Source: Candidatus Multivoradales bacterium (GTDB taxonomy: Bacteria > Acidobacteriota > Thermoanaerobaculia > Multivoradales > JAHEKO01). Taken from it: a DNA stretch of 64,000 nucleotides. Both the position numbers and the translations under genes were made by a program. Below the pieces are notes generated by a model. The model was given only the letters and a program-made list of their open reading frames with translations. It searched no databases and had not been told where the DNA came from. The stretch is from positions 2,784,001 through 2,848,000 of the forward strand of contig CBDCXM010000009.1 in assembly GCA_965223855.1 (NCBI GenBank). Direction: 5' to 3'. Shown here piece after piece: positions 17,348 to 40,474 of this stretch. Numbering within the stretch: position 1 is the first letter of the stretch; every line of letters starts with the position of its first letter.

Positions 17348-18871
17348 TCAGCTCCGCGCCATCAGCAGCGTATGGAGGAGCTTGCGTTGCGCGGACAGGT
17401 ACTGGATGTCCCCGCTGGGATCGCCGCCGAAGGTCTGCTCGAGCGTCTCACCGGTGTTGGCGTCGGTCGCCTCGACCGCGATCGTGCCGTCCTCCCGATA
17501 CTGGGTGTAGACACCGATCGGGTAGTTGAGTCGCGGGTTGGGGAGGGGACCGACGTTGAGGATGCCGAGGCTCACCGCCTGCTTCGGATCGCCCGAGAAC
17601 TGCACGAAATCGAGCACCATGTTCCGCTGGTCGTGGCGGGTGGTGTAGTACGTCTTGCTGATCCGCGTCGGAAGCGGCATGTTCTTCTTGATCAGCGTGT
17701 TCACGGTGACCTCACCGGTCGTCGGGTCGATGGTGCGCACGCCGACGTTGTAGCCGGTGACCCCCTTGAGCTCCGGCGGCAGGGTGTAGGCGACCTTCTC
17801 GCCGGAGAGCTGCGCGGCGCGCAGCGAGGCGCCGTAGGCGACGGCTTTGCTCGGCTCGTGGTAGAGCACCTCCTGCTCGTCGCCGTCGAACTCCTTGCGG
17901 ACCCGATCCACGACCGCCGGCACCAGGGATGACCCGCCGACGAGAAGCGCGGTGTTCACGTCCTTCTTCGACAGCCCCGCCTCCTTGAGGCACTGCAGCA
18001 TGACGTCGATCGTCTTCTCGATGTAGCCCTTGATGGCACGAACGAACTCGTCCCGCTCGATCTCGATCTCGACCGCCTCCCGACCGAGGATGACGGTCTT
18101 GCGGACACGCGGTGTGGCCGGGCCGCAGAGCTCGATCTTGATCGCCTCCGAAGCGCGCCGCAGTTCCAGGAGCGAACGCGCCGTCGGCTCGAACTTCCGG
18201 CCGAGGGCGTTCTCGAACTGGGCGAGGATGATCTCGCCGATCCGCTCGTCGAACTCCTTGCCTCCGAGATCGGAGAGTCCTGCCTTCGAGAGGACGTAGA
18301 TACCGTTGCTGTCGAGACTCAAGGCGGTGGCGTCGAACGTGCCGCCGCCGAAGTCGTAGGCGAGGAGCACCTGATCGTGCGCTTCGTGAGTTACGCCGTA
18401 GTGAAGTGCCGCGGCGACGGGCTCCTCGATGAGGTCGAGCAGGGGAAGGTCGGCGAGCATCGCGGCGGCCGCGACCGCCTTGCGCTGCGGGTCGTTGTAG
18501 TGAGCGGGGACCGTGATCACGGCGCCGTCCACGCGGCGACCGCCGTCCGCCTCCGCGTCGAAGCGCAGCTTGTCGAGCAGCAGAGCGCCGATCCCCTCGG
18601 CGTGCCAGGCGGCACCCTTGTCGTCGAAGTAGATCGGCTCGCGCTCCCCGAAGTGCCGCTTGAAGAAGCGGATTGCGGGCAACTCCGGATGGTCCTCGAC
18701 CATGTCCTCGGCCGTGGCGCCTACGAAGGCACTGCCTCCGGTGACGACCGCGACCGACGGCGTATGAAACCGCTCCTCGTCCCACGAATCCGGGATCAGG
18801 GCGCTGGAACCGTCGGGCTGGATTCTCGAAGCGAGCGAGTAGCTCGTCCCCAGGTCGATGCCGATCTTCAT
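17348..18871 (-). CDS. Hsp70-family protein (atypical, 507 aa, no helical lid)
   Basis: IGIDLGTSYS, AVITVPAHYNDPQRKA, EEPVAAAL, YDFGGGTFD, LLVGGSS. Confidence 0.92.
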   Translation of the reverse strand: MKIGIDLGTSYSLASRIQPDGSSALIPDSWDEERFHTPSVAVVTGGSAFVGATAEDMVEDHPELPAIRFFKRHFGEREPIYFDDKGAAWHAEGIGALLLDKLRFDAEADGGRRVDGAVITVPAHYNDPQRKAVAAAAMLADLPLLDLIEEPVAAALHYGVTHEAHDQVLLAYDFGGGTFDATALSLDSNGIYVLSKAGLSDLGGKEFDERIGEIILAQFENALGRKFEPTARSLLELRRASEAIKIELCGPATPRVRKTVILGREAVEIEIERDEFVRAIKGYIEKTIDVMLQCLKEAGLSKKDVNTALLVGGSSLVPAVVDRVRKEFDGDEQEVLYHEPSKAVAYGASLRAAQLSGEKVAYTLPPELKGVTGYNVGVRTIDPTTGEVTVNTLIKKNMPLPTRISKTYYTTRHDQRNMVLDFVQFSGDPKQAVSLGILNVGPLPNPRLNYPIGVYTQYREDGTIAVEATDANTGETLEQTFGGDPSGDIQYLSAQRKLLHTLLMARS

Positions 18872-18904: not shown

Positions 18905-21037
18905 TCAGTCGGACGAACCGGGCTTGGGCTTGTTCCGGCTCCCCAACGGTGGGCGCTTGGAGGAGGCTCCGCCCGGCTTGAGGCTCGCCTTCTTGCGAAG
19001 CTTGGCGAAGGGATCCTCCGCCTTCTCCTTCTGGCCGGCGCCGGCTCCGGGCCGGGCCGCTCCGGGTCGGGCCGCTCCGGGTCGCTCGGCACCGGGCCGG
19101 GCAGCGCCGGGCCTCGCGGTGCCGGCCGCGGCAGCTCCAGGCCGGGCAGGGGTGGCGGCGCCACCGCTCTTCATCGCTTCGAGCTTCTTCAGCGCTTCAG
19201 CCGCCTCTTTGGGCATCCCCGGCTTGGCGGCTCCGGCGGCCGCTGCGGGCGGGATTCCGGCAGGCATGCCGGGGGCCGCCGGCGCGGCGCCGGCATCGGG
19301 AGTCATGATCGAGGTGAAGAAGACGATCAACTGCTGGCTCAGCGTTTCGAGGTCGGCGGCGGACGCCGAAGACTTCTTGACACCCTCCGTGACCTTCCGC
19401 TGGGAGGCGTCGAGCGTCTTCAGCTGCTTCTGCAGGATCTCCTTGTCGGCAGCCGCCTCCCGTGCCACCTGATCGGTGATCGACTTGACGGTCGTTTCGA
19501 CGAGGTCGAGGGCGTTGTTCTGCTGCTCGGAGAGGTGCCGGGAGATCGCCTGATCCCACCCCTTCTGTACCTCACCGAGAGAGCGCTTCAGATCGTTGCG
19601 CATGCCCTCGCGCGCCTTGTCGAGCTCCTTGGCTACGGTCTCTGCGCTCTGCTTTCTCGCTCCGTTGTACACGTTGACGAGACCGAAGGAGAGGAGCACG
19701 ACCCCCATCGGAATCGTGAACTCGCGGTAGGAGCGGATGAACGACAGACCGAAGGCGGAGAAGACCATGAAGAAGACCATCTGGTAGCGACGCGCGGCCA
19801 TGAAGTAATCCATCGGTCCGCGGCGCGTGATCTCACTCTGGTAGGGACGGTTGAATCCGACCGAGCGATCGACCAGGTTGGTGAGGTGACGCTCCGACAT
19901 GTGATCGAAGTGGAGCGTGACGGGCGGAGCTCCCTTCGACTCGATCAGATTCTCGAGATGGGTTTCGACCTCGCGGAACAACTCGCGCATCCGCAGCAGG
20001 TCTTCGCGGCCGACGTCGGTGAGCGATCGCGACGCTTCGTCCAGCAGGCCGTCCTGGATCTGCTTCGGGATCGTCAGGACGAAGATCTTCGGCTTCTTCT
20101 CGTAGTCGAAGTCCTCGAAAGCGTCGATCCGCGCGTCGAGCTTGTTCGTGAGAATCCCGTCGTGGGTCGCCACCAGCTCGCCCATGCGCGCGGCCGAGGT
20201 CTTGGTGAAGGTGTCGAACTTCTTCTGCAGATAGGAGCGGACGTCGCCCAGCACCTCCGTCGGGTTCCCTCCCGATCCGGATCCCTTGGCGGCCATCTGC
20301 TGTTCGAGCGAGGCTCGCTTCGAGCGCATTCCACGACCCTCGTTCTCGAGGGCCGCGGCGAACGCGCCGTGCATCGAGGCGAGGGCGCGAGATGCCGACC
20401 ACAGCCCCGCCATCCGACCCGCCTGCTGCAGCGGCGGCCTGCCGAAGCTCTCCTCCAGATTCTTGGTGTGGAGGGTCTCGATCTCGACGATCTTGCAGAC
20501 CCAGTCGTCGCGACTTCCCAGACCGGCGATCGCCTGCGCCCAGTCGCTCTCCTTCGGAGCGACCATCAGCGTGAGCGGCCGGTTCTTGACCTCGGCGATC
20601 AGGGCTTCCATCCACTCCTGGCCGGGCGATTCCTTGGAGCCCCGCGCCACGACGAGCACCGGAGCGACTCTTTCGCCGGCCTGGCGGCCGCGTCCCTGCA
20701 TCCTGCTGCGGAGCCTGACGACGGAGCAGTTGCGCTGAAGGTCGACAGGGCGCCGCTCCTCTTCCTTCTCGCCGGTCGCGAGGTCGACGATCGATTCCGC
20801 CTCCAGCCCCAGCCATTGGGCGAGGGTCCCCGTCCATTGAGGATGGAGATCGCCGAGCAGCAGCACCTCCACCTCGACGGTGCCGGACTCGACGAGCGCC
20901 AGCAGCTCGTCCGCGTTCTCACGCAGTTTGACGAGCGCCGGCGCCCTGCCGGCGGCGTCTACGGTCTCCGAGAATCCGCGAACCTGGTCGCGGACCGTTT
21001 CCGCGGCGTTTTCGGGGCTGACTCGAGCCAGGGCCAT
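18905..21037 (-). CDS. Dynamin-like membrane protein with degenerate GTPase domain, helical stalk, TM hairpin and Pro/Ala-rich tail
   Basis: N-terminal helix then VEVLLLGDLHPQWTGTLAQWLG at the P-loop position; long helical region; hydrophobic hairpin MVFFMVFSAFGLSFI / FTIPMGVVLLSFGLVNVY; adjacent to Hsp70. CDS is clear, family call is inference. Confidence 0.5.
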   Translation of the reverse strand: MALARVSPENAAETVRDQVRGFSETVDAAGRAPALVKLRENADELLALVESGTVEVEVLLLGDLHPQWTGTLAQWLGLEAESIVDLATGEKEEERRPVDLQRNCSVVRLRSRMQGRGRQAGERVAPVLVVARGSKESPGQEWMEALIAEVKNRPLTLMVAPKESDWAQAIAGLGSRDDWVCKIVEIETLHTKNLEESFGRPPLQQAGRMAGLWSASRALASMHGAFAAALENEGRGMRSKRASLEQQMAAKGSGSGGNPTEVLGDVRSYLQKKFDTFTKTSAARMGELVATHDGILTNKLDARIDAFEDFDYEKKPKIFVLTIPKQIQDGLLDEASRSLTDVGREDLLRMRELFREVETHLENLIESKGAPPVTLHFDHMSERHLTNLVDRSVGFNRPYQSEITRRGPMDYFMAARRYQMVFFMVFSAFGLSFIRSYREFTIPMGVVLLSFGLVNVYNGARKQSAETVAKELDKAREGMRNDLKRSLGEVQKGWDQAISRHLSEQQNNALDLVETTVKSITDQVAREAAADKEILQKQLKTLDASQRKVTEGVKKSSASAADLETLSQQLIVFFTSIMTPDAGAAPAAPGMPAGIPPAAAAGAAKPGMPKEAAEALKKLEAMKSGGAATPARPGAAAAGTARPGAARPGAERPGAARPGAARPGAGAGQKEKAEDPFAKLRKKASLKPGGASSKRPPLGSRNKPKPGSSD
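19040..19146 (-). repeat. 15-bp coding repeats (RPGAA/RPGAE pentapeptides)
   Basis: PARPGAAAAGTARPGAARPGAERPGAARPGAARPGAG in the C-terminal tail. Confidence 0.8.
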
Positions 21038-21064: not shown

Positions 21065-21409
21065 TTAGTCGAACGCCTCGATCGCCTCTTTCTGGGTGTC
21101 GAAGGAGGGAATGATCTTGTGGATCAGCGCCATCTGGAGAACCTTGCCCACGTTCTCCTCGAAGTTGGCCAGGTGGACCTGCGCTCCCTTCTCCTTCGCG
21201 GCGACGTTGACCGCGACGAGCTCTCCTACGCCCGCCGAGTCCATCTTGGTGACCTTGCCCATGTCGACCACGAATTTGTCCTCTCCCTCCTTCAGCTCCT
21301 TGACGACGAGCTTCATGAGGTCGAAGTGATCCTGCCCAAGCACCATCTCGCCCTTGAGGCTGACGATGAGGACATCCTTCTGCTGACGTGTCTTGATCTC
21401 GAATGCCAT
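21065..21409 (-). CDS. STAS-domain anti-sigma factor antagonist (114 aa)
   Basis: IVSLKGEM...FVVDMGKVTKMDSAGVGELV with phospho-acceptor Ser; own RBS GGAGAG before ATG 21409. Confidence 0.9.
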   Translation of the reverse strand: MAFEIKTRQQKDVLIVSLKGEMVLGQDHFDLMKLVVKELKEGEDKFVVDMGKVTKMDSAGVGELVAVNVAAKEKGAQVHLANFEENVGKVLQMALIHKIIPSFDTQKEAIEAFD

Positions 21410-21599
21410 CGGACTCTCCCTCTCCGGCGTTTCCGCCGCGGTTCCTGCAGTCTCCTCTTTCGGCTGAGCGCCGAGTCTAGAGGACTTGGTCGTTGCCGAC
21501 AATGAATTGTTACCTCCGGCCCGATTACCCTTCGGCACACTGCCAGAGCCCTTCTTGTCTACGGAGCTATGGCTGCTGCGGTGGCGCTCGAAAGGATCG

Positions 21600-22006
21600 C
21601 CGGTCTCGGCGAGACGCCTCCTGTAGGGCGTCAGACGGCGGTCGATCGTCCTCACACTGAGGTCCAGAAGTTGGCGGGCGATCTTCGGTCGCACCTCGAC
21701 CCTGGTCCTCGCCCAGGTCACCAGCTCGGGCAACCGCTTCTTCAGTTTCGCGGCGGACGGGTAGCGGGCATGCCGCCACAGGGAGACCAGAAGCCGGGTG
21801 CCCTCGTTGTCGCTCTTCCGGGGCCGGCCGCGACGCCTCGGGAGCCTCGGTCGCGGGGGTTTTCGAAGCAGCCGGGTCGCGTACTTACGGTGAAACCCGG
21901 TCACCGCGCAAAATTCGTCCAGCAGCCGTGACTTCTCCGGACGCGTCGCTTTTCGATAGCGCGGCGCGATCGCCTTGACCATCTCGAGTTGCCAGTGTTC
22001 CCTCAA
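21600..22006 (-). mobile_element. Remnant N-terminal DNA-binding region of an integrase-core (ISNCY/IS481-like) transposase, no catalytic domain
   Basis: IAPRYRKATRPEKSRLLDEFCAVTGFHRKYATRLL..RRGRPRK..LWRHARYPSAAKLK..LLDLSVRTIDRRL; no DDE core follows. Confidence 0.7.
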
Positions 22007-22280: not shown

Positions 22281-25200
22281 ATGATTGAACTCAGCGACGA
22301 ACAAAAACTACTTGCGCAGTCTCTGCTGCAGAAGAAGGCCGCCATGGAGGCGTACCGGGCAGCGGAGCTGCCGGCTTCCGCGATGCTCGAGGTCGGGCTG
22401 TCGATGGAGCAGGTGCGCGAGGCGGGCTACGAGCCGAACGAGCTCAAGGAAGAGCAGTTCGCGGCCGAGAAGCTGCATGGACTCTGGCCGGCGGCCGAAT
22501 TCCTGGACAGCGACTGGGAGCTGGCCGAACTGAAGGACGGCGGCTACGGCGTCATGGAGTTCAGGACGGGCGGCTGGGAGCCGAGCGTCCTGCTCGACGA
22601 CGGCGCATATACCGCCGAGGACTTCCACGGTGGTGGTGAAGCCGGCGAGGCCGAAGGCGAGGGCGAAGAAGGGGGCGACTCGGAGTCGATCTGGCCTGCG
22701 GAAGAGCTGAAGGCCGCCGAGATCGGTGCCGAGATTCTGCGGGAAGGTGGCTACACGGCGACCGAGCTGCGGGAAGGCGGCTACTTCGCCGGCGAGCTGC
22801 GCGAGGCCGAGTACACGGCCGCGGAGCTGCTCGAGGCCGAGTTCACCGCTGAAGAGATGAAGGACGGCGAGTGGGACGCTGCCGAGCTCAAGGACGGCGG
22901 CTGGGACGCCGAGGTGCTCTACGGCGTCTACAGCAACGAGGAGCTGCGCGAGGCGGGCTACGAGGCGGCGGCGATGAAGAGCGCCGGCGCCACCGCCAAC
23001 GAGATGCGCCAGGCCGGCTATAGCGGCGAGGACCTGCAGGAGGAGTACTCGCTGCCCGAGAAGCGCGAGGGCGGCTACGGCGCCGGCGAGCTGAGCGATC
23101 AGTACTCCGCCAAGGAGATGACCAAGGCGCAGTTCGGCGTCGAAGAGCTCTACCCGCACTACGACGTCGAGGACCTCAAGGAAGCGGGCGTCACGGCGAA
23201 GGAGTTGCTCGAGGAGGTCGAGGAGTGCTCGGTTTCGGACATCGCCGAGTTCTTCAGTGCGACCGAGCTCAAGGAGGCGGGGGCGACCGCCACAGAGCTC
23301 GAACAGGAGAACTTCAGTGCTGCCGATCTCAAGGAGGCGGGGTACCCGCTCTCCGAGCTGAAGGAGTGCTTCGACCTTCCCGACCTCAAGGAGGAGTTCA
23401 CTCTCCCCGAGCTCAAGGAGGAGTACGAACTCTCGGAGCTCAAGGAGGAGTTCGAGGTCTCGGAGCTCAAGGAGGAGTTCGAGCTCGGCGAGATGAAGGA
23501 GGAGTTCGGAGTCGCCGATCTCAAGGAGGCCTACTCGCTCGAGGAGCTCAAGCCCGAGTACGAGCTTTCGGAGCTCAAGGACGCCTACGACCTGGGCGAG
23601 CTGAAGGCTGAGTTCGAGCTTTCGGAGCTCAAGGAGGAGTTCGACCTCGGCGAGCTCAAGGAGGAGTTCTCGCTCGAGAAGCTGAAGGCTGAGTTCGACC
23701 TTCCGGAGCTCAAGGAGGAGTTCGATCTCGGAGAGCTCAAGCGAGAGTTCTCGCTCGAGGAGTTGAAGGAGGAGTTCGACCTCGGCGAGCTCAAGGAGGA
23801 GTTCTCCCTCGAAGAGCTGAAGGCTGAGTTCGAGCTTTCGGAGCTCAAGGAGGAGTTCGACCTCGGCGACCTCAAGCAGGAGTTCTCGCTCGAGGAGCTC
23901 AAGGCTGAGTTCGAGCTTTCGGAGCTCAAGGAAGAGTTCTCGCTCGAGGAGCTGAAGGCGGAGTTCGAGCTGCCGGAATTGAAGGAGGAGTTCGACCTCG
24001 GTGAGCTCAAGGAGGAGTTCTCGCTCGAGGAGCTCAAGGAGGAGTTCGAGCTTGCCGAGCTGAAGGAGGAGTTCTCCCTCGAGAAGCTGAAGGCTGAGTT
24101 CGAGCTCGAGGAGCTCAAAGAGGAGTTCGAGCTTTCCGACCTCAAGGAGGAGTTCTCGCTCGAGGAGCTGAAGGAGGAGTTCGATCTTCCGGATCTCAAG
24201 GAGGAGTTCACTCTCGAAGAGCTGAAGGCGGAGTTCGAGCTGACGGAACTCATGGAGGAGTTCGAACTCTCCGAGCTCAAGCGCGAGTTCTCGCTCGAGG
24301 AGCTCAAGGAAGAGTTCGAGCTTGCCGAGCTGAAGGAGGAGTTCTCGCTCGAGAAGCTGAAGGCGGAGTTCGAGCTCGAGGAGCTGAAGGAGGAGTTCGA
24401 CCTCGGTGAGTTGAAGGAGGAGTTCTCGCTCGAGGAGCTCAAGGAGGAGTTCGAGCTCTCGGAGCTGAAGGAAGAGTTCTCCCTGGAAGATCTCAAGGAG
24501 GAGTTCGAACTCGCCGAGTTGAAGGAGGAGTTCGAGCTTTCGGAGCTGAAGGAGGAGTTCGACCTCGGCGAGTTGAAGGAAGAGTTCGAGCTTCCCGAGC
24601 TCAAGGAGGAGTTCGATCTCGGCGAGCTCAAGGAGGAGTTCGAACTCGCCGAGCTGAAGGAGGAGTTCGAACTCGCGGAGCTCAAGGAAGAGTTCGAACT
24701 CGGTGAGCTGAAGGAGGAGTTCGAGCTTCCCGAGCTCAAGGAGGAGTTCGAACTCGGTGAGCTCAAGGAGGAGTTCGAGCTTTCCGAGCTGAAGGTAGAG
24801 TTCGAGCTTTCGGAGCTGAAGGAAGAGTTCGACCTCGGCGAACTGAAAGAGGAGTTCGAGCTTTCTGAGCTCAAGGAAGAGTTCGAGCTCGGTGAGCTGA
24901 AGGAAGAGTTCGAGCTCGACGAACTGAAGGAAGAGTTCGAGCTTTCGGAGCTCAAGGAGGAGTTCGAACTCGGCGAGCTGAAGGAGGAGTTCGAACTCGA
25001 CGAGCTGAAGGAGGAGTTCGAGCTTTCCGAGCTGAAGGAGGAGTTCGAGCTTTCGGAGCTCAAGGAAGAGTTCGAGCTCGAGGAGTTGAAGGAAGAGTTC
25101 GAGCTCGGCGAGCTGAAGGAGGAGTTCGAGCTCGAGGAGCTCAAGGAAGAGTTCGAGCTTTCGGAGCTCAAGGAGGAGTTCGAACTTTCGGAGCTCAAGG

Positions 25201-28200
25201 AGGAGTTCGAGCTCGAGGAGTTGAAGGAAGAGTTCGAACTCGGTGAGCTCAAGGAGGAGTTCGAGCTCGAGGAACTCAAGGAGGAGTTCGAGCTTTCCGA
25301 GTTGAAGGAAGAGTTCGAGCTTTCGGAGCTCAAGGAAGAGTTCGAACTCGAGGAGTTGAAGGAAGAGTTCGAGCTCGGTGAGCTCAAGGAGGAGTTCGAG
25401 CTCGACGAGCTGAAAGAGGAGTTCGAGCTTTCGGAGCTCAAGGAAGAGTTCGAGCTCGGCGAGCTGAAGGAAGAGTTCGAACTCGACGAGTTGAAGGAGG
25501 AGTTCGAGCTCGGCGAGCTGAAGGAAGAGTTCGAGCTCTCGGAGCTCAAGGAGGAGTTCGACCTCGGCGAGCTGAAAGAGGAGTTCGAGCTTTCGGAGCT
25601 GAAGGAGGAATTCGAGCTCTCCGAGCTGAAGGAGGAATTCGAGCTTTCGGAGCTCAAGGAGGAGTTCGAGCTCTCGGAGCTCAAGGAGGAGTTCGAGATC
25701 CCCGAGCTGAAGGAGGAGTTCGAGCTCTCCGAGATGAAGGAGGAGTTCGAGCTCGAAGAGCTCAAGGATCACTACGAGCTCGAGGAGCTGGCCGAGGAGT
25801 ACACCTGCGCCGAGCTCAAGGACGTCGACTTCACGGCGCAGGAGCTCTACGGGGTCGACTTCACCATGGGCGACCTCAGGGAGGCGGGCTTCACCGCCGG
25901 CGAGCTCAAGGAGGAGGGCTTCGAAGCGGGGCAGCTCCTCGAGGGTGAGTACGAGGCGCAGGATTGTCACGACGCCGGGTACGACGCCGCCGAGATGCTC
26001 GCCGGTGAGTGGCTCACCGAGGTACTGCACGGTGTCTACTCCGCTGCCGAGATGCTCGAGGGCGACTGGCCGACGGATCTGATGCACGGCATCTACACCG
26101 CGGCCGAGATGCTGGAGGCGAACTGGCCGACCGAGCTGATGCACGGCATCTTCGAGGCCGCCGAGCTTCTAGAAGCCAACTGGCCGACGGAGCTGGTGCA
26201 CGGCATCTACCAGGCCGCCGAGCTTCTGGAGGCGAACTGGCCGACGGAGCTGGTGCACGGGATCTTCGATGCCGCCGAGCTCCTGGAGGCGAACTGGCCG
26301 ACGGACCTGCTGCACGGGATCTTCCCGGCCGCCGAGCTTCTCGACGCGAACTGGCCGACGGAGCTGATGCACGGCATCTACCAGGCCGCCGAGCTTCTGG
26401 AGGCGAACTGGCCGACGGAGCTGCTGCACGGGATCTTCCCGGCCGCCGAGCTTCTGGAGGCGAACTGGCCGACGGAACTGGTGCACGGGATCTTCGAGGC
26501 CGCCGAGCTTCTGGAGGCGAACTGGCCGACCGAGCTGGTGCACGGGATCTTCCCGGCCGCCGAGCTTCTGGAGGCGAGCTGGCCGACGGACCTGATGCAC
26601 GGGATCTTCGACGCCGCCGAGATGTTGGAGGCGAACTGGCCGACCGATCTGATGCACGGGATCTTCCCGGCCGCCGAGCTTCTGGAAGCGAGCTGGCCTA
26701 CGGATCTGATGCACGGGATCTTCGACGCCGCCGAGATGCTGGAGGCGAACTGGCCGACCGATCTGATGCACGGGATCTTCCCCGCGACGGAGCTGTTGGA
26801 CGCCAACTGGCCGACGGAGCTGATGCACGGGATCTTCGACGCTGCCGAGATGCTGGAGGCGAACTGGCCGACCGATCTGATGCACGGGATCTTCCCGGCT
26901 GCCGAGCTTCTGGAGGCGAACTGGCCGACGGATCTGATGCACGGGATCTTCAACGCCGCCGAGATGCTGGAGGCGAACTGGCCGACCGATCTGATGCACG
27001 GGATCTTCCCGGCCGCCGAGCTTCTGGAGGCCAACTGGCCCACGGAGCTGGTGCACGGCATCTTCGATGCGACCGAGCTACTGGAGGCCAACTGGCCGAC
27101 CAACCTGTTGCACGGGATCTTCCCGGCCAAGGAGCTGCTCGACGCGGCCTGGCCGACGGAGCTGGTACACGGCATCTACGAGGCTGCCGAGCTTCTGGAG
27201 GCCGACTGGCCGACCGAGCTGGTGCACGGCATCTTCGATGCCGCCGAGCTTCACGCCGGCGGCTGGCTGGCCGAGCGCCTGCACGGCATCTTCGGCGCCG
27301 ACGAGGTCAAGGACGCCTACCAGCCCGACGAGGTCGAAGGTGTCTACGCGATGGAGGAGTTCTTCGGGGACGAGGTCTCCGAGGCGATCTCGAGCGTCGG
27401 TGACTTCACGTCGATGATCACGAGCGGCATCGACCGCCTCAACGAGATGCTCGCCGCCGCGCAGTCGGTGAAGGGCGACATCGTTGCGGCGACCGACGAG
27501 GTCAAGTCGCAGTTCGACGTTCTCGACCAGTCGATCAACGAGGCCGAGCAGCAGATCGCTCAGCAGGCCGAGGAGATCGCCGCCAAGTTCGAGGAGTTCG
27601 AGGCCAAGCTCACCGCCTTCGACGGCGGGGTGTCGGAAGGCACCGAGGGGCTGGAGAACGAGCTCAACGACGTCGAGGTGATGTCCAACGAGATGCTCTC
27701 GACGATGCAGACCCAGTACGAGGCCTGCAAGAGCGACCTCGAAGCGCTCGCCGATCAGGTGACGGAGTACCAGAGCACCACGACGAGCGAGGTTCAGGCG
27801 CGTCAGGAGCAGATCGAAGCGTTCCAGCAGGAGATCGAGTCGGTCGAAAGCGACTTCCGCGACAAGAAGGACGAGCTCGTCGACCACTACAACGGGATGC
27901 AGGACGGTCTGGTCAACAGCCTGTCGAACGTCCAGAGCGAGTTCGGCGGCCTGGTGTCTCAGACCTCCTCGAGCCTCACGGCTCTGACCGGAATGCTCGA
28001 CGACACGAGCTCGGAGAAGCTGGGCAACATGGCGACTCTGATGCTCGAGACGCTGGTGGGCGCCCTCGGCGATTCCGCCGGCGCCCTCGGCGACGCGCTC
28101 TCGTTCCTCGAGGGTGTCGGTGCGGCGGGCCAGGAGCTGATGGACGGCGCCGCCGGCGACGTCATCGGCCAGATGGAAGGCGTCGTCGACGTCATCGACC

Positions 28201-28244
28201 AGATCAAACCCGTACTCGACATGGTCGAGTCGATGCTCGGCTGA
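22281..28244 (+). CDS. Giant acidic repeat protein (1987 aa) with C-terminal ~300-aa helical domain
   Basis: RBS GAGGAG upstream; uninterrupted ORF; 10-, 9- and 19-aa repeat blocks; no signal peptide. Confidence 0.9.
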   Translation: MIELSDEQKLLAQSLLQKKAAMEAYRAAELPASAMLEVGLSMEQVREAGYEPNELKEEQFAAEKLHGLWPAAEFLDSDWELAELKDGGYGVMEFRTGGWEPSVLLDDGAYTAEDFHGGGEAGEAEGEGEEGGDSESIWPAEELKAAEIGAEILREGGYTATELREGGYFAGELREAEYTAAELLEAEFTAEEMKDGEWDAAELKDGGWDAEVLYGVYSNEELREAGYEAAAMKSAGATANEMRQAGYSGEDLQEEYSLPEKREGGYGAGELSDQYSAKEMTKAQFGVEELYPHYDVEDLKEAGVTAKELLEEVEECSVSDIAEFFSATELKEAGATATELEQENFSAADLKEAGYPLSELKECFDLPDLKEEFTLPELKEEYELSELKEEFEVSELKEEFELGEMKEEFGVADLKEAYSLEELKPEYELSELKDAYDLGELKAEFELSELKEEFDLGELKEEFSLEKLKAEFDLPELKEEFDLGELKREFSLEELKEEFDLGELKEEFSLEELKAEFELSELKEEFDLGDLKQEFSLEELKAEFELSELKEEFSLEELKAEFELPELKEEFDLGELKEEFSLEELKEEFELAELKEEFSLEKLKAEFELEELKEEFELSDLKEEFSLEELKEEFDLPDLKEEFTLEELKAEFELTELMEEFELSELKREFSLEELKEEFELAELKEEFSLEKLKAEFELEELKEEFDLGELKEEFSLEELKEEFELSELKEEFSLEDLKEEFELAELKEEFELSELKEEFDLGELKEEFELPELKEEFDLGELKEEFELAELKEEFELAELKEEFELGELKEEFELPELKEEFELGELKEEFELSELKVEFELSELKEEFDLGELKEEFELSELKEEFELGELKEEFELDELKEEFELSELKEEFELGELKEEFELDELKEEFELSELKEEFELSELKEEFELEELKEEFELGELKEEFELEELKEEFELSELKEEFELSELKEEFELEELKEEFELGELKEEFELEELKEEFELSELKEEFELSELKEEFELEELKEEFELGELKEEFELDELKEEFELSELKEEFELGELKEEFELDELKEEFELGELKEEFELSELKEEFDLGELKEEFELSELKEEFELSELKEEFELSELKEEFELSELKEEFEIPELKEEFELSEMKEEFELEELKDHYELEELAEEYTCAELKDVDFTAQELYGVDFTMGDLREAGFTAGELKEEGFEAGQLLEGEYEAQDCHDAGYDAAEMLAGEWLTEVLHGVYSAAEMLEGDWPTDLMHGIYTAAEMLEANWPTELMHGIFEAAELLEANWPTELVHGIYQAAELLEANWPTELVHGIFDAAELLEANWPTDLLHGIFPAAELLDANWPTELMHGIYQAAELLEANWPTELLHGIFPAAELLEANWPTELVHGIFEAAELLEANWPTELVHGIFPAAELLEASWPTDLMHGIFDAAEMLEANWPTDLMHGIFPAAELLEASWPTDLMHGIFDAAEMLEANWPTDLMHGIFPATELLDANWPTELMHGIFDAAEMLEANWPTDLMHGIFPAAELLEANWPTDLMHGIFNAAEMLEANWPTDLMHGIFPAAELLEANWPTELVHGIFDATELLEANWPTNLLHGIFPAKELLDAAWPTELVHGIYEAAELLEADWPTELVHGIFDAAELHAGGWLAERLHGIFGADEVKDAYQPDEVEGVYAMEEFFGDEVSEAISSVGDFTSMITSGIDRLNEMLAAAQSVKGDIVAATDEVKSQFDVLDQSINEAEQQIAQQAEEIAAKFEEFEAKLTAFDGGVSEGTEGLENELNDVEVMSNEMLSTMQTQYEACKSDLEALADQVTEYQSTTTSEVQARQEQIEAFQQEIESVESDFRDKKDELVDHYNGMQDGLVNSLSNVQSEFGGLVSQTSSSLTALTGMLDDTSSEKLGNMATLMLETLVGALGDSAGALGDALSFLEGVGAAGQELMDGAAGDVIGQMEGVVDVIDQIKPVLDMVESMLG
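23355..25811 (+). repeat. Tandem 27-bp coding repeat, 91 in-phase units of ELKEEF(E/D/S)L(S/G/E/P/A/D)
   Basis: First unit GAG at 23355, ELKDHYELE unit at 25758 (89 x 27 later); synonymous codon variation between units. Confidence 0.92.
25986..27296 (+). repeat. Tandem 57-bp coding repeat, 23 units of AAE(L/M)LEANWPT(E/D)L(M/V/L)HGI(F/Y)x
   Basis: Counted from the translation; W and HG are invariant. Confidence 0.92.
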
Positions 28245-28277: not shown

Positions 28278-29279
28278 ATGTCAGAAGTACTGGATTTCGG
28301 AACGAGTTTCGACGAAGCGGCGCAGACGGTCAGCAACCTGATCTCGGACATGGCCGACCATGCCGCCACGGTGGCCGACCACAACTCGGTGATCGAAGCG
28401 GCCGAGAGTTCACTGCAGCAGGCGAAGGATCAGGCCTCTCAGATGCTCCAGGGCCTCGCCGGCGACGTCGGCAGCCAGAGCGAGGAGACCAACTCCCTGA
28501 GAGACGAGTTCGCCGGCACTGCCGATGAGCTCAAGGCGGCGGGCGACGCCGGCATGGAGGCCGTCGACGGCTTCAAGGAGGCGGTCGCCGACACCCACGA
28601 CGAGCTGTCCGACGCGGTCACCGAGACGGTGGACGAGGCGAACCAGCTCTACGAAGAGGTGCAGAGCGCAGTCTCGGACGCTGTGTCGATGACCGGCGAA
28701 ACCGCCAACCAGATGCAGGGCACGGCCGATCTGACGATGCAGACGCTCGGCGAAGTCGAGTCCTCGGTCACCGAGCTGACCGGTCGCATGGCCGACCTCG
28801 GGCAGGACACGGTCAGCAAGGCTCTCGACCTCGGCAGCAAGATCACCGACGACGTGCAGTCGCGCTTCGACGGCATGTTCGGAGATGTCACCGGCGCCCT
28901 GACGTCGGACTTCTTCGACCAGGCGGTCGCCGGCTTCGACGGCCTGTCGAGCAACCTTACCAACCTCTACGACAACTTCGAGGACGTGGTCAACGGTCTC
29001 GGCGACAACCTGATGGGACGGATGGAAGAGGTGTTCATGAACACCATCGAGCACGCCCAGGATCAGGCGGCGTCGAAGCTGGAGGAGGAGTTCAAGGAAC
29101 TCGTCAGCGACGCCGTCGAGTTTCTCGTCGCCGAGGTGGCCGAGAACCTCACCATGGCCACCGTCGGCTCGGCGACCACCGCGGCCCTCGGTCCGGCGGT
29201 GCCCGTCATCGTCGCGGCGAAGGCCGTCGTCACTCCCATCAAGACCGCCCTCGAGCTGCTCCGCAGCATGGGCCTCTGA
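28278..29279 (+). CDS. Acidic all-helical protein with hydrophobic C-terminal segment (paralog 1)
   Basis: RBS AAGGAG; no Pro until the C-terminal TMATVGSATTAALGPAVPVIVAAKAVVTPIKTALELL. Confidence 0.85.
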   Translation: MSEVLDFGTSFDEAAQTVSNLISDMADHAATVADHNSVIEAAESSLQQAKDQASQMLQGLAGDVGSQSEETNSLRDEFAGTADELKAAGDAGMEAVDGFKEAVADTHDELSDAVTETVDEANQLYEEVQSAVSDAVSMTGETANQMQGTADLTMQTLGEVESSVTELTGRMADLGQDTVSKALDLGSKITDDVQSRFDGMFGDVTGALTSDFFDQAVAGFDGLSSNLTNLYDNFEDVVNGLGDNLMGRMEEVFMNTIEHAQDQAASKLEEEFKELVSDAVEFLVAEVAENLTMATVGSATTAALGPAVPVIVAAKAVVTPIKTALELLRSMGL

Positions 29280-29303: not shown

Positions 29304-30230
29304 ATGCGCGATGTCATTGCACAGATTTTCGAAGCAGCCCCCAGCGCGAGTCCGCTGCTGGAGCAGGTAAACCAGGAATCAGAAGCCCTGATGGGGATCG
29401 TCGGCGAGCTGCAGGAGAACATCGGCAGTAAGCAGACGGCCCTGGCGGACGTCGCTTCCCGTCGCAACGAGAAGATGAGCGAGCTCCAGACCAAGGCGTC
29501 GGAGCAGCAGTCCCGTCTCGAGAGCGAGGTCGCGGACGTCGACGCCAAGGTCGGTGAGCTCAAGCGGGGTCTCGACGAGATCAAGGAGGGTGTCACCAGC
29601 GCCCTCGAAGCCGCCCAGCAGCAGATGGACGGCTTCCGCGGGCAGGTCGACGCCGGCCGCGAGCTCGTGTCGGGCGCCAACGAGGCGGCGCAGGCCGCCA
29701 TCTCCACGGTCCACGACCAGATCCAGGCGGGGCGCGAGTCGCTCCATCGGGCAACCGATTACGCCAACGAACAGATCGACGGCTTCCAGTCGAAGATCGA
29801 CGAGACGATGGAGTTCACCGAGAACATGGCGACCAACCTGATGGACCGCATGGAAGAAGGCATGCGGGACACGGGCGCCAAGGTCGAAGAGATGACCGGC
29901 ATGTCGTTCGAGGAGATGCACTCCGTCTTCACGAGCGGCATGGAGATGGTCCAGGGCAACGTCATCGAGAACGGCGTCAACATGGTGCTCGACGACCTCC
30001 AGGGCCGGATCGAGCAGCAGGCGAACCAGCTGATCGACCAGTTGGTCGACGAGCTCGTCGGTGCGCTCGGCAACGTTCGCGAGAGCGTTTTCGGCAACGC
30101 CGAGGACGCCGGCCTCGAGCGCAAGGCGACCGAGGCGGTTCTCGACGCACTCGAAACGGTGCTGGACCCGATGTTCAGCGCCATCGATCACATCAAGGGC
30201 ATGGCCTCGATGGTCGGTATCGACATCTGA
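29304..30230 (+). CDS. Acidic all-helical protein (paralog 2)
   Basis: RBS AAGGA; coiled-coil/amphipathic pattern; ends VLDPMFSAIDHIKGMASMVGIDI. Confidence 0.85.
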   Translation: MRDVIAQIFEAAPSASPLLEQVNQESEALMGIVGELQENIGSKQTALADVASRRNEKMSELQTKASEQQSRLESEVADVDAKVGELKRGLDEIKEGVTSALEAAQQQMDGFRGQVDAGRELVSGANEAAQAAISTVHDQIQAGRESLHRATDYANEQIDGFQSKIDETMEFTENMATNLMDRMEEGMRDTGAKVEEMTGMSFEEMHSVFTSGMEMVQGNVIENGVNMVLDDLQGRIEQQANQLIDQLVDELVGALGNVRESVFGNAEDAGLERKATEAVLDALETVLDPMFSAIDHIKGMASMVGIDI

Positions 30231-30271: not shown

Positions 30272-31174
30272 ATGAGCATTCTTGATGTCGTACAGCAGGC
30301 CATCAGCCAGGTCGAGAGCGATCTGGCCCAGCAGGCCGAGAATCTGGTCGGTGAGCTGCAGGACACCGGCAGCCAGGTGGAAGCCGCGGGCGGCGAAGTC
30401 GACTCACAGTGGCAGGACCTGGAGACCAAGGCTGAGTCGATGTTCGGCGCCGCCGACGATGCGATGAGTCAGATCGAGCAGGCGGGCGACGCGATGTCGA
30501 CGCGCGCCAGCGAGATCCGCTCGAACGTCGACTCGGCGATGGAGCAGGGCTCGAGTCTCTTCGAGTCGTGCCGCGGCGTCGTGGAGACGATGGACCAGGG
30601 GGTGCAGGAACTGATCCCCGACTGCGACAGCGTCATGGCGATGGTCGACGAGACCGTCAACACGCTGGCCAGTGAGATCGAGAGCCTCGACCAGGCGCTC
30701 GAGTCCACACGCGTGATCACCGACAACCACCTGCACGCCCCCTTCCAGGGACTGGTGGACGAGGTGAAGACCGAGATCTTCAACCGCGCCAGCGAGCTCG
30801 GTGGGTACGTCGACAGCGACTTCCTCACCACCGCGGCCGACGAGATCAGCCAGTTCAAGAGCCACGTCGACGAGGTGGTCACCAACGCCACCGACAAGCT
30901 CGAGGAGGTGCGCAGCACCGCCGAGAGCGAAGGTTCCAACGCGATGGAGCAGATGGGTTCGATGTTCGGCGAGCAGTTCGGCTCGCTCATCGGCACCGTC
31001 GAGACGATCGCCAACTTCATGACGCAGGTCGGCGGCATGATGGAGACGGCCGGTACGATGATCGGCACGACCACCTCGGTGATGAGTGCCGGAGCCGGTA
31101 CCACCGCGATCGGCGCCAAGGCTGCGATCGGGATCATCGAGGACATCGTCGAGATCTTCGAGAGCGTCACCTGA
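30272..31174 (+). CDS. Acidic all-helical protein with Gly/Thr/Met-rich hydrophobic C-terminus (paralog 3)
   Basis: RBS GGAG; ends VGGMMETAGTMIGTTTSVMSAGAGTTAIGAKAAIGIIEDIVEIFESVT. Confidence 0.85.
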   Translation: MSILDVVQQAISQVESDLAQQAENLVGELQDTGSQVEAAGGEVDSQWQDLETKAESMFGAADDAMSQIEQAGDAMSTRASEIRSNVDSAMEQGSSLFESCRGVVETMDQGVQELIPDCDSVMAMVDETVNTLASEIESLDQALESTRVITDNHLHAPFQGLVDEVKTEIFNRASELGGYVDSDFLTTAADEISQFKSHVDEVVTNATDKLEEVRSTAESEGSNAMEQMGSMFGEQFGSLIGTVETIANFMTQVGGMMETAGTMIGTTTSVMSAGAGTTAIGAKAAIGIIEDIVEIFESVT

Positions 31175-31312
31175 TCCGGTCGGTCCTTCCCATGAGGTGA
31201 GTCTCCGGGCGCGAGCTTCAGGTCGGTCCAGCCGACCGGGGGTTCGCGCCCGGCTTTGTCTCGACCACGACCGCGCGAGCGACCGAGAAGAGGAAGCGAG
31301 GAGAGGGGGAGC

Positions 31313-31970
31313 ATGAGCATTCTGGACGAGGTCGGAAAGGCGATCAGCCACGTCGAGGGCGACCTCGCCGAGCAGGCGATGGCGGCGAAGGACGAAAGGG
31401 TCGACGCGGTCCTGAAGATGACCAACGCGATCTTCGAGATCGACACGCAGTGGGAGGAGGTAAAGACGACGGGCGAGTCGATGTTCGGCGCCGCGGACCG
31501 TGCGATGGGCTGGATCGAGCAGGTGGGAGGCAAACTGTCCAGCCATGCGAACGAGGTCCGTTCGGGCATCGACGGCGCCATGGAGCAGGGCTCGAGCCTC
31601 TTCGAGTCGTGCCGCGGCGTCGTCGAGGCGCTCGACCACGGTGTGCAGGAGCTGATCCCCGATTGCGAAGGGGTGATGGGCAAGGTCGGCGAGATCGACT
31701 ACCTGAGCGATCGACTCGAGAAGACGCGCGCCTACACCGACAACCACCTTCACACGCCCTTCCAGGGAGTGGTGGACGACCAACGACTTCCTCACCACCG
31801 CGGCCGAGGAGAGCCAGTTCAAGAGCCACGTCGAGAACGTCGGCGCCGGTAACGAGAACCGGTCGCCTGACGAACGCGCCCGAATCGGTCTGTTCGGGGC
31901 GAAGGCCGCTATCGGCATCATCGAAGACATCGTCGAGATCTTCGAAAGTGCGTCTGATCGGCGCCGGTAA
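31313..31970 (+). pseudogene. Shortened duplicate of paralog 3, one +1 frameshift near 31780 (pseudogene or sequencing error)
   Basis: MSILDEV...AMEQGSSLFESCRGVVE near-identical to 30272-31174. After the shift it reads NDFLTTAAEESQFKSHV...GAKAAIGIIEDIVEIFES to TAA 31970. Confidence 0.75.
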
Positions 31971-32106: not shown

Positions 32107-33006
32107 ATGGCATCTCGCGCGAAGTTTCTGGAAGCGTTGACGATCGCGACACTGGTCGCCTTCGTGGGCGCCGCCGCCGCGTGGGGGCAGAGTTCCCCAC
32201 CGCCCAAACCGAAGACGAAGTCGACGACCCAGACTCAGTCCAAGGCGCCCCCGCCGAAGCCGAAGCGGGTCGGTCCGACGCCGGTCTACGTGCCTCCTGC
32301 GGTACTCATCCTGTCCGCCGACATGGACTGCGCGGTCGAACTCGACGGCGAGGAGCTGCTGCTGCTGCGCAAAGACGACGTTCAGGAGGTACCGAAGCTC
32401 CCGTCGGGCGAGCACCTGTTGCAGGCCTACCCGCTCGGCATCGAGGACGGACCCACCTGGAAGCAGTCGATCAAGATCCCCGAGACCGGAACCGTCGTGG
32501 CGACGATCGAGCTCAAGGAGCTGGTCGCCGAATGGGAGGAGGAGACCGAGAACGTCGATCGCTTCCAGGAGCGCGACAAGACGGTGTACGACAAGGACAC
32601 CGGCTTCATCTGGACCCGCTCGGTGTCGCCCGAGATGCGCTGGACCGACGCGGTCGGCTACTGCCAGCGCCAGCAGCCCGACGGCGTAGGGGGCTGGACG
32701 CTGCCGTCGCTCGACGACCTGTCGAAGCTCCACTATCCGGACCATCCCTCTCCAAGGCAGGAGACGGCACGTTCCGAGGGGGGCCGCAGTCTGCTCGGGA
32801 TCAAGCGTCGCGGAGAGATGCAGGTCCTCCCGAGGCTCATCTTCGAGGTCTTCGACCACAACTCCGTCTCCTCGCTCTGGGTGAAGGGGTCGGACGATCG
32901 TGTGAGTTGCAGCTTCCTCGGTGAGTTCAACTGCCGCATCGAATCGAAGAAGCACACCGGGTCGGTGTTCTGCGTGCGGCCCGCACAGGAAGGACTGGAC
33001 TTTTGA
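32107..33006 (+). CDS. Secreted protein with PEGA-like domain and DUF1566 (Lcl C-terminal-like) domain
   Basis: Signal peptide ending AWG; DRFQ..TVYDKDTGFIWT...MRWTDAVGYC...GWTLPSLDDL...VFCVR. Confidence 0.8.
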   Translation: MASRAKFLEALTIATLVAFVGAAAAWGQSSPPPKPKTKSTTQTQSKAPPPKPKRVGPTPVYVPPAVLILSADMDCAVELDGEELLLLRKDDVQEVPKLPSGEHLLQAYPLGIEDGPTWKQSIKIPETGTVVATIELKELVAEWEEETENVDRFQERDKTVYDKDTGFIWTRSVSPEMRWTDAVGYCQRQQPDGVGGWTLPSLDDLSKLHYPDHPSPRQETARSEGGRSLLGIKRRGEMQVLPRLIFEVFDHNSVSSLWVKGSDDRVSCSFLGEFNCRIESKKHTGSVFCVRPAQEGLDF

Positions 33007-33536
33007 GCGACGCCGGACTCCCGAAGATCACCATGATGATCTCGTTCGTCGCGATCCTGTTCGCCGGCGCTCTGGCGTACGTGATCATGACCTGGGCGGA
33101 CGCCAACGCCGCGAAGGCGGAGGCACAGCTGATCATCGACGACGAGGTGCTGGTCCAGGAGGAACAGGTCGCCGGCGAACTGAAGGTGTTCGAGGACCAG
33201 CTCGCGGCGCTCAAGGAGCGGGCCGGCGTGCTGGTGCGCGGCAAGATGGCGGTCTGCAACAACTCGACGGGGACGATCACCGTGTCGCTGCTGGCCGCGA
33301 CCTACCTCAACGATGCCGGCGAGTTCGAAACCTTCAACAGTGAGGGGTTCGGCCGCCAGTTGTGGCGCATCCCCGCCGGCGAGAAGCAGCTCCTGACCTA
33401 CTCTCAGGGCTCCACGAACTGGGACGGCGACGTCGGGTACTACTCGATGTGGCTGGAAGCAGGCGGGCAGGAGTACCCGTTCGCCGGCACCTGGCCCTCC
33501 GATTCCGAGTACTGCGTGCGCTGGACGGGTGCCTGA
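33003..33536 (+). CDS. Membrane-anchored protein: TM, short coiled coil, outer beta domain (DUF1036-like)
   Basis: TM ISFVAILFAGALAYVIM; MAVCNNS...TY..D.GEFETF.S....W.IPAG.....Y.....WDG....Y shared with the C-terminus of the next gene. Confidence 0.75.
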   Translation: MSDAGLPKITMMISFVAILFAGALAYVIMTWADANAAKAEAQLIIDDEVLVQEEQVAGELKVFEDQLAALKERAGVLVRGKMAVCNNSTGTITVSLLAATYLNDAGEFETFNSEGFGRQLWRIPAGEKQLLTYSQGSTNWDGDVGYYSMWLEAGGQEYPFAGTWPSDSEYCVRWTGA

Positions 33537-35445: not shown

Positions 35446-35554
35446 TCGAGCGCGAAGCACGGTGACGGCGGGCGGAAGCTCGCACAACCGCAGATGCGCC
35501 ACAGTGGATGTAACGGGCGCCCATTCCGGGCGCCGGTATCGGCGTGGGGGAATC

Positions 35555-38500: not shown

Positions 38501-38611
38501 ACGTTCGTGCTGCCGAAAGGACGCTCGATCTTCGTCTACTATGACGCCGATCTGGAGCGCTCGGACCTCGACCTCTACACGCTCTCATTCGGCGCGCGGT
38601 GGGAGTTCTGA
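35555..38611 (+). CDS. Autotransporter adhesin with ~4 Calx-beta domains and an Ig-like domain
   Basis: Signal peptide; repeated (V/T)EG(D)..FTVS...T.DGTA....DY....G...E.DE.F.V....G.GTIVDDD; beta-barrel ending GARWEF. Confidence 0.9.
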   Translation: MRNLFSCSASVGLWTCSFLALLLVGSAPAAAGEFFFVSNPSVAEGDSGSVDAVFTVSLLPPRLEGCGIESFRYATVDVTATAGIDYGATSGAFTLDGCDPDTPIDIPVPVFGDVVDEGVSETFLFRVTYVETGTEFDGTGTIVDDDAATISIADSFLTEGDNGTRDMVFTVSMTSPFDLDVPIDFATADGTATAPADYRATSGRIILASGATSVDIVIPVEGELLVEADETFAVDIALGPGGPFPPIVDAQGIGTIVDDDSVEVSIADTTVVEGDSGTTDALFTVSLSGLSAESVFVDYRTSNGTGKAASDYRATSGRISIAPGDSSATISVPVFGDLEPEGDESFFVDLSGAVGASLARTRGVATIVDDDGGSILSLLAPGTVSEGGGAATLVVERTGDLTQAASVVVDAAAGTATAGQDFTATTETLVWGAGVGGTRTLELPILDDNEIEGSESVVVTLSQPAGAALGTSTGELTINDDDEPQQVQIVGDPVQVTTVEETAELTVRVLDTAGEPIQGATVEWSVDGDARLLGEPVDATDSQGESRQSVELGEVPGRVVVTATLTSTGQSIQFDLTAEGNLRRLFPSSGLPTGEASVAGVLDLACIDATGQFGSFCDYLFTLPGPGDQLAVLGEVTPEETPAQATISMESAQTQLGNITARLKALHGAGTRQAIDQLALTINGRSVPWQAIVAAMAPAKEFELPDFAAELAPQDDAGDSGAATGPIDVDADAAPRLGFFVNGRISMGSRDETSSEEGFDVDSSGITTGIDYRVSDRFIVGGALGFLDTDLELVRDGGALDAEGYSLAVYSTYFRDRFYLDTIAAIGRNDYEISRHVDLGIPFQGRNRWISRATPSSDQLSLALSSGFDRVVGASTVSLFAGASYVEAQIDEYRESGGGPFDLILRQQDVTSLLSSGGLEWNYASSRDWGILQPTVRATYLHEFDDDSRLIRGRFVGDVTAGEFVLATDTPDRDYFNLGAGLTFVLPKGRSIFVYYDADLERSDLDLYTLSFGARWEF

Positions 38612-40353: not shown

Positions 40354-40474
40354 ATCGGCCATTCTAACGGCAGGAACTCCGCGTCACCTTCGGCGGCGCG
40401 GCCCAACGGTGTACGCTTTTTCTCGAATCTGCGCACACTTGGAATGCGGCATGGCGCCGCCTGAGGAGGGAACC

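Follow-up and report, generated by a model that had tools for sequence, protein, structure and literature searches.

The closest described relative of the repeats reported here is found in DotG/IcmE, a part of the Legionella type IVB secretion system, which bears an N-terminal membrane anchor and carries a 10-residue unit, xELKxAGF/YxA, in long tandem arrays. Two other classes of repeat protein invite comparison: the pentapeptide-repeat proteins (MfpA, Qnr, HetL), which fold as right-handed quadrilateral beta-helices, and the RTX proteins, which are giant, acidic, built of nonapeptide repeats and devoid of an N-terminal signal peptide, the folding or stiffness of their beta-rolls being cation-dependent. 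The DotG repeat region is reported to vary in length between Legionella species (PMC6761968), and pentapeptide-repeat proteins are described as forming rod-like beta-helices that mimic DNA (PMC8145042, PMC7980463). We analyzed a stretch of 64,000 nucleotides (the window, to which all coordinates refer unless stated otherwise) from a Candidatus Multivoradales bacterium (Acidobacteriota; assembly GCA_965223855.1, contig CBDCXM010000009.1, positions 2,784,001 to 2,848,000). It contains a giant gene, at 22281..28244 on the + strand, whose 1987-residue product, to judge from its sequence, shares the repeat of DotG but is not DotG. With a probability of about one half, we consider this protein to provide a length-variable, polyanionic beta-solenoid spacer arm on a hetero-oligomeric assembly of long helices at the cytoplasmic face of the membrane.

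The open reading frame (ORF) begins at the earliest start in its frame, and a Shine-Dalgarno-like GGAG...GGAG stretch lies directly 5' of its ATG. Glutamate makes up 25.5% of the product, in which 605 acidic residues (Asp and Glu) stand against 138 Lys and Arg (net charge -467). Reading along the + strand, a non-repeat head (aa 1-44; 22281..22412), kept in three other genomes (G002, the unpublished G005, and L034), is followed by ~31 degenerate 10-mers recognized by the Pfam Decapeptide model (aa 45-358; 22413..23354), 91 in-phase 9-mers of the type ELKEEFxLx (aa 359-1177; 23355..25811), a hinge of six 10-mers that forms the best single Decapeptide stretch (aa 1178-1235; 25812..25985), 23 19-mers of the type AAELLEANWPTELVHGIFx with one His per unit (aa 1236-1672; 25986..27296), a linker that reads as degenerate (aa 1673-1693; 27297..27359), and a C-terminal domain of 294 residues (C-domain, or helical subunit A; aa 1694-1987; 27360..28244 with the stop codon). 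Per 100 residues the net charge amounts to -19 for the 10-mers, -31.7 for the 9-mers (-260 over the block), -17 for the 19-mers and -16 for the C-domain; the repeats together carry -410.

The 9-mer block accounts for 41% of the protein and shows no insertion or deletion across its 91 units. Column counts give the profile E-L-K-E-E-F-E-L-S, with Leu at position 2 and Lys at position 3 in 89/91 units each, Phe at position 6 in 85/91 (and Tyr in the other six) and Leu at position 8 in 87/91; position 9 is Gly or Pro in 29/91 units (Gly in 21/91), and Gly occurs once at position 7. Tandem Repeats Finder reported a 27-nt unit in 90.5 copies with 0% indels, a 57-nt unit in 23.2 copies and a higher-order 114-nt unit in 10.6 copies. 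The strongest lag in the 9-mer array is five units (45 aa), which reflects duplication history rather than coil length. A first-pass annotation had described a hyper-acidic ORF of this length with 91 phase-perfect 9-mers, a 10-mer hinge, 23 19-mers and no signal peptide; composition, register reading and Tandem Repeats Finder confirm this description, and a Kyte-Doolittle scan of the protein revealed no transmembrane- or signal-like hydrophobic segment. Its "~350 aa" of degenerate 10-mers holds as to the 10-mers themselves but not as to their extent, the first ~44 residues being the conserved head.

The affiliation of the repeats is clear. Pfam PF25296 (Decapeptide) matches the protein in eight stretches with 287.1 bits against a gathering cut-off of 45 (E 2.7e-87), and all five Decapeptide matches in the source genome lie within the giant ORF. 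The NCBIfam DotG/IcmE model NF033900 matches at 2.1e-72, although its 244.6 bits fall short of the 750-bit cut-off and come from the repeat region only, and IcmE/DotG chains in the PDB match the repeat region at 4.2e-53, so that the likeness to Legionella DotG/IcmE decamers noticed at first pass is borne out. Repeat number differs between species in DotG and in the orthologs of the giant protein alike. What sets the giant protein apart from DotG is the lack of a transmembrane (TM) anchor, of a TrbI/VirB10 domain and of a type IV secretion system (T4SS) context, together with its 91 contracted 9-mers, its 23 19-mers and its long-helix C-terminal partner. A match to a LIM protein (9e5c, 1.8e-32) was rejected as a low-complexity match of another E-rich 9-mer, with no homology.

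For comparison we used 46 long Decapeptide-family proteins retrieved with the whole giant protein as the query. Windows of period 10 or 20 dominate in them, and Glu makes up 3-9% of each, against 25% in the giant protein; the Glu excess is thus a peculiarity of the source lineage. Runs of 9-mers (ELKLEFELA) interleaved with 10-mers (ELIAGGFTLA) were found in only two of the 46, P0069 and P0073, whose 9-mers have Leu at position 4 and hence a strict alternation of polar and apolar residues. The proteins of this set carry partner domains of widely different kinds (TrbI, EF-hand, RRM, ion channel, tape measure), so the Decapeptide repeat behaves as a general-purpose module.

In the 10-mer, A-A-E-L-K-E-A-G-Y-T, the step from Leu to an aromatic residue (Y/F/W) is five residues, and a small residue stands two places before each of them, which gives two pentapeptide-like halves, A-E-L-K-E and A/G-x-Y/F/W-x-x. 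In the 19-mer, E-L-L-E-A-N-W-P-T precedes E-L-V-H-G-I-F-x-A-A, which makes it a pair of a W-type and a Y-type unit with 20 residues minus one linker residue after the Trp; the ortholog in L034 keeps the 20-residue pair (...ELLTGEWPAEAMRNVYEAEE...). The 9-mer reads as a pentad plus a tetrad, with one residue lost between Leu and Phe, and its hydrophobic periodicity is beta-like (power 156 at 160 degrees, 0.1 at the 100 degrees of an alpha-helix). We infer that pairs of 10-mers, 10+9 and 9+9 residues correspond to 20-, 19- and 18-residue coils of one continuous solenoid. Beta-solenoids usually rise 0.48 nm per coil; with coils of 18-20 residues the arm would therefore comprise ~87 coils and measure ~40 nm.

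The "solenoid" of the first-pass annotation, which had proposed modeling each block, finds weak support in a low-confidence AlphaFold2 (AF2) model built from the single sequence with no alignment: the 19-mers form two paired beta strands per unit, a beta-solenoid at a predicted local distance difference test (pLDDT) score of 55-68, whereas the 9-mers, at pLDDT 30-42 and with some helix, are not resolved. When the 19-mer model was compared with PDB structures by VIA-align, the best look-alikes were curli CsgA (8c50_A; Z 21.0, root-mean-square deviation (rmsd) 9.2, 297 residues aligned), EtpA (8vba_A; Z 20.0, rmsd 4.2, 439 aligned) and a Ca-dependent antifreeze beta-helix (3p4g_A; Z 18.3, rmsd 3.1, 268 aligned), values that come from a low-confidence model of a kind in which repeats easily score high. 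Curli are secreted and Q/N-rich; CsgA shares with the 19-mers a strand-turn-strand coil of ~19-23 residues, but at 6% identity there is no sequence relation. The match to 6x62_DX was set aside, its identity figure (16%) being meaningless; that entry is described as a polyalanine beta-helix of unknown identity (PMC7511231). A search of the ESM Atlas with the 9-mers returned nothing usable (similarity 0.76).

Pentapeptide-repeat proteins are, like the arm, acidic, rod-like repeat proteins, and the first half of the 10-mer and the 9-mer (A/S-E-L-K-E) fits their consensus. To our knowledge, solved members have far fewer coils than ~87. The consensus is given as (A/C/S/V/T/L/I)(D/N/S/K/E/I/R)(L/F)(S/T/R/E/Q/K/V/D)(G/D/E/N/R/Q/K) in at least eight contiguous pentads (PMC8145042). 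Every other pentad of the arm agrees with it, whereas the pentad in between (A/G-G/E-Y/F/W-x-A, or the tetrad E-F-E-L) fits incompletely. The second half departs from it by Gly at i-2 and Tyr or Trp at i; the putative coils of 19 and 18 residues likewise differ from coils of 20. NCBIfam gives weak matches of the repeats to the HetL and Alr5209 models, and no pentapeptide-repeat protein is among the best 50 structural matches listed for the 19-mer model. With RTX proteins the giant protein shares its size, acidity, tandem 9-residue units and lack of an N-terminal signal peptide, and its 9-mers could adopt a two-strand coil of 18 residues; it differs in that its 9-mers lack GGxGxDxUx and its gene has no adjacent type I secretion genes, the HlyD/ABC pair ~33 kb away not being syntenic.

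The C-domain belongs to a family with the three genes that follow it on the + strand: subunit B (orf333; 28278..29279), with a conserved hydrophobic C-terminal tail at aa ~300-325, subunit C (orf308; 29304..30230) and subunit D (orf300; 30272..31174). A profile of the family searched against the source genome matched the C-domain at 2.0e-86 (positions 3-295), orf308 at 4.5e-19 and orf333 at 1.9e-11, and blastp relates the C-domain to orf300 at 5e-6; the resemblance to downstream paralogs reported at first pass thus stands, and the arrangement recurs in other genomes. All four share a C-terminal I-K-x-x-L-x-x-V/L-like motif. Modeled by AF2 with 40 sequences, the C-domain is one helix (residues 3-256, pLDDT 78.6). 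In A-D a hydrophobic period of 3.6-3.67 stays in phase over 260 residues (z 6.7-9.7), with z of -0.2 to 1.4 at period 3.5. This points to long, straight helices of amphipathic character, not to coiled coils of the heptad kind. For B, C and D, Pfam and NCBIfam gave only helical families that scored below their cut-offs; the isolated C-domain lies just above the cut-off of Baculo_PEP_C (41.6 against 38 bits), which we read as a generic helical match, and its profile retrieved only generic coiled-coil and apolipoprotein matches from the PDB. Directly after a terminator-like hairpin downstream of subunit D (31236..31253, +; a consensus match only), a 198-residue ORF (31256-31852, +) shares 56% identity, over its residues 20-177, with residues 1-166 of subunit D; it has the look of a tandem duplicate that was truncated or frameshifted.

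Among 1.84 billion representative proteins the C-domain has 65 homologs at E <= 1e-3, 17 at <= 1e-10 and two at <= 1e-30, nearly all of them stand-alone proteins of ~270-300 aa or fragments. The same search among proteins of 1092-3478 aa gave nothing at E <= 0.001; the fused form may be missing from that collection because assemblies break in the repeats. Searching for related loci with the C-domain alone gave 399 pattern matches, none of which was confirmed. In the ESM Atlas its nearest neighbors are hypothetical clusters of ~300 aa, commonest in Cyanobacteriota (0.87-0.88), which we treat as leads only. At the phylum level 58 of 401 genomes match the A-D profile at E <= 1e-5 (a tally that includes the unpublished genome G063), but strong full-length matches beyond the source genome (G000) occur only in G311 (five, the best at 9.7e-62), and the remainder are short, coiled-coil-like and partial. 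At the class level the source genome is the only one of 401 with a match at E <= 1e-8, and among the nearest relatives the count is four of 41. The source genome also contains a second locus (G000:C9:919708-920532; L033 8705-10551, -) with two tandem helical genes of ~300 aa, one matching the A-D profile at 6.3e-18; its neighbors are genes for a DUF900 hydrolase and for an FG-GAP protein, and no Hsp70-like gene lies close by.

The cluster around the giant gene was found in four other genomes. On the - strand of the window, divergent from the giant gene, lie a gene with a C-terminal STAS domain (21065..21982, start codon inferred), unk710 (18905..21037), a 710-residue protein of no known family, and an Hsp70-like gene (17348..18871); downstream on the + strand are orf177 (33003..33536) and a gene for a triple-FHA/TM protein (33529..35445), both syntenic in L034 and G311. 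In G311, genes of 297, 325, 313 and 303 aa pair, in the same order, with the C-domain, orf333, orf308 and orf300 as reciprocal best matches, and adjoin genes for an Hsp70-like protein (57% identity), an unk710 homolog (1e-56), an orf177-like protein and FHA proteins. Here subunit A has no repeat arm, and the G311 genome has no Decapeptide match. L034, a public metagenome-assembled genome (MAG) record of an "uncultured Acidobacteriota bacterium" (contig CAWKPF010000002.1), has the order unk710 homolog (35%), Hsp70-like (63%), subunits A, B, C and D, Lcl-like, orf177-like and FHA, with A-D as one-to-one best matches of the four genes of the window. Its subunit A, a 1077-residue frame with a likely product of 1058 aa from Met 20, has the same head, ~740 aa of 10-mers only and then the C-domain (34%; B-D 31% each); it contains 19% Glu and all 12 Decapeptide matches of that genome.

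Two fragmented assemblies complete the picture. In G002, of the same genus as the source, one contig carries the head and the 10-mers and ends in 9-mers (567 aa from Met), and a second begins within 9-mers and runs on through the hinge, 11 19-mers (against 23 here, with the caveat of the fragmentation) and the C-domain (67%) to B; its divergent neighbors are those of the window. The unpublished G005, sole source for what follows, offers two contig ends (1043 and 824 aa) with the same head, 10-mers, a different type of 9-mer, the C-domain (34%), B and the same neighbors. The arm thus ranges from 0 to ~1650 residues and its unit types vary from genome to genome, with head and C-domain preserved, which fits the earlier suggestion that length is set by repeat number and can evolve. 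The Hsp70-like/unk710 pair is more widespread than A-D, since it occurs with 37-49% identity in Bacteroidota-titled loci (for example Shivajiella indica) and one Planctomycetales MAG and, more distantly (31% Hsp70 identity), in Pseudomonadota-titled loci; among 80 loci, A-D-like genes were found only in L034 (four ORFs), apart from a marginal match in L077 (4e-4).

We therefore propose the following arrangement, at the probability given at the outset. In the source lineage, subunit A would have gained at its N-terminus a very long arm made of DotG-type decapeptides, two decapeptides making one 20-residue coil of a pentapeptide-type beta-solenoid, and loss of one residue would have produced the 19-residue coils of the 19-mers and the 18-residue coils of the 9-mer pairs. 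The resulting polyanionic rod, capped by the 44-residue head, would be joined to an amphipathic helix of ~250 residues (~38 nm). This helix may bundle with those of B, C and D into a hetero-oligomer that the hydrophobic tail of B would hold at the membrane. The arm would then act as a spacer, setting the head tens of nanometers away from the helical complex, and its length and charge would change quickly in evolution.

Several observations weigh against this proposal. We know of no decapeptide repeat, the DotG region included, with a solved structure, and a recent preprint describes the DotG repeat region as unresolved in cryo-electron microscopy (bioRxiv 10.1101/2025.06.23.660953). Foldseek found nothing at E <= 1e-3 in the PDB for the repeat model, Pfam Pentapeptide_4 reaches 16.5 bits against a cut-off of 38, the 9-mer model has low scores and partial helix, and the Z values of the 19-mer model may be inflated. 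Glu occupies position 4 in 76/91 of the 9-mers, where it would point inward in a strict in/out strand. The C-domain model has a predicted template modeling score (pTM) of only 0.34, the association of A with B-D is suggested by paralogy and synteny, and no RNA run is listed among the runs that contain the stretch.

Should the 9-mer block not fold as a solenoid, it could be an extended single alpha-helix or a disordered acidic "bristle", with beta structure confined to the 10-mers and 19-mers. Glu, Leu, Lys and Phe favor helix, like-charge density is extreme, and the AF2 behavior of the block points the same way; nevertheless, we consider this unlikely. ER/K single alpha-helices have roughly balanced Glu and Lys/Arg at i/i+4, a pattern not seen in a block of net charge -260 over 819 aa with one Lys against 4-5 acidic residues per unit. 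Gly or Pro recurs at position 9, large hydrophobic residues make up a third of the block at fixed positions under purifying selection (see below), hydrophobic power at 100 degrees is lacking, and 9-mers are mixed into the 10-mer arrays of related proteins.

A second alternative accepts the arm but makes its charge the point: the arm itself would be active, as a polyanionic mimic of nucleic acid or a decoy that draws basic or DNA-binding proteins, or else as a high-capacity Ca2+/Mg2+ binder with cation-dependent folding or stiffness. The charge itself (-410 over the repeats, densest in the 9-mers) is an obvious argument, and the much lower Glu content of the 46 long Decapeptide proteins would mark it as special and selected. 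The models would be the pentapeptide-repeat DNA mimics MfpA and Qnr, DNA mimicry being described for rods of this class (PMC8145042, PMC7980463); the Ca2+-dependent beta-helix 3p4g_A is among the best look-alikes of the 19-mer model, and unk710 ends in a basic tail. On the other hand, the RTX motif GGxGxD is absent, the conserved cluster holds no gyrase or nucleic-acid gene, and the cluster is kept where the arm is less acidic (L034) or missing (G311). We regard this alternative as possible but improbable. More doubtful still is a fuller version, in which the arm would be a beta-solenoid of a new kind, its pentapeptide-type coil shortened from 20 residues to 19 and 18 and bearing ~400 net negative charges; such a ~40-nm DNA-like or cation-gated rod would present the head, as the working end of a hitherto undescribed membrane machine of four hetero-oligomeric long-helix proteins with its own lidless Hsp70, a degenerate dynamin-like membrane protein and Ser/Thr-phospho (FHA/STAS) control.

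That the array was expanded in assembly, or that the ORF is no real gene, is essentially excluded. No read or contig of the public runs spans the array, the G002 and G005 assemblies break within the repeats, and long antisense ORFs are present. However, 84 of the 91 9-mer DNA units are distinct, with a mean pairwise DNA identity of 78%, so the units are old and diverged at synonymous sites rather than copies made by an assembler; the longest exact repeat measures 56 nt inside the array and 61 nt inside the whole gene. This settles the doubt about assembly expansion raised at first pass. Four public runs of one study contain the stretch, three of them sharing one sample. Contigs of run X1 cover 30/30 depth bins, and in three runs contig pieces that match exactly fall within the array; as the source sample may be among these runs, this is not independent support. 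A second strain is present in contigs of X3 and X4, with 27 variant positions inside the giant gene, 26 of them at third codon positions and 25 synonymous, the two exceptions being D/E exchanges; in the antisense ORF 22308-26144 the same variants are synonymous in 1/26. The + frame is thus a gene under purifying selection, and it has orthologs in the four genomes described above. The two antisense ORFs that cross the repeats on the - strand, 22308-26144 (1278 aa) and 23585-25765 (726 aa), in which G+C content at third codon positions is high, are shadows of the repeat codon structure, the strain variants there being almost all non-synonymous.

Finally, the notion that the giant protein is a DotG/IcmE-like part of a type IVB secretion system, as the match to the NCBIfam model might suggest, is refuted by the missing TrbI/VirB10 domain (PF03743), which is absent from the protein and without a match in the 92%-complete source genome, and agrees neither with the lack of a TM segment nor with the absence of T4SS genes within the window.

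The neighboring genes give some indication of the setting of the cluster. The Hsp70-like protein has a nucleotide-binding domain and a beta substrate domain but no helical lid, since its alignment covers DnaK residues ~5-500. unk710, always paired with the Hsp70-like gene, has a hydrophobic hairpin at ~aa 410-455 and no relative in the PDB or Pfam; its 25 relatives are unnamed or "hypothetical", one of them from a Thermoanaerobaculia MAG, and its match to the dynamin-like LeoBC model of PADLOC is weak (3e-5). PADLOC detected no defense family above noise in the cluster, giving weak LeoA/LeoBC and ZorA-tail matches to helical parts, and a match of the neighboring kinase to PD-T4-6 kinase models was discarded as expected of any Ser/Thr kinase. 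The STAS gene product has an Arg-rich N-terminal part of ~190 aa without a Pfam match, kept in G002 (60%) and the unpublished G005 (43%).

orf177 combines a TM segment with a ~140-aa domain, and this post-TM C-terminal domain is common to orf177 and the triple-FHA protein. In the FHA protein, residues 335-428 are similar to the N-terminal ends of three ~570-aa paralogs that lie in tandem by the Hsp70-like gene of Shivajiella indica (L037). The FHA gene is followed directly by an autotransporter gene with four Calx-beta domains and Big_1 (35462-38611, +); the L034 sequence ends inside its FHA gene. Further downstream is an FHA-GAF-PP2C (SpoIIE) phosphatase (38644-40362, -). Caspase-domain (Peptidase_C14) fusions flank the cluster, one with Sel1 (13368-14888, +) and one with a Ser/Thr kinase (15220-17310, -), the latter adjoining the Hsp70-like gene in G002 too. 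The kinase, FHA, STAS and phosphatase genes suggest phospho-Ser/Thr control of the region.

The giant protein holds three coil lengths (10+10, 10+9 and 9+9) in long, near-ideal arrays within a single chain, and is thus a natural test set for how far a solenoid tolerates contraction and extreme charge. The same repeat type makes up the DotG region, which belongs to a major secretion system. The giant gene also marks a conserved cluster of four long-helix paralogs, a lidless Hsp70-like protein, a 710-residue membrane protein and FHA proteins, in which the arm is optional, and its range from absence to full length offers a natural handle on the effects of distance and charge.

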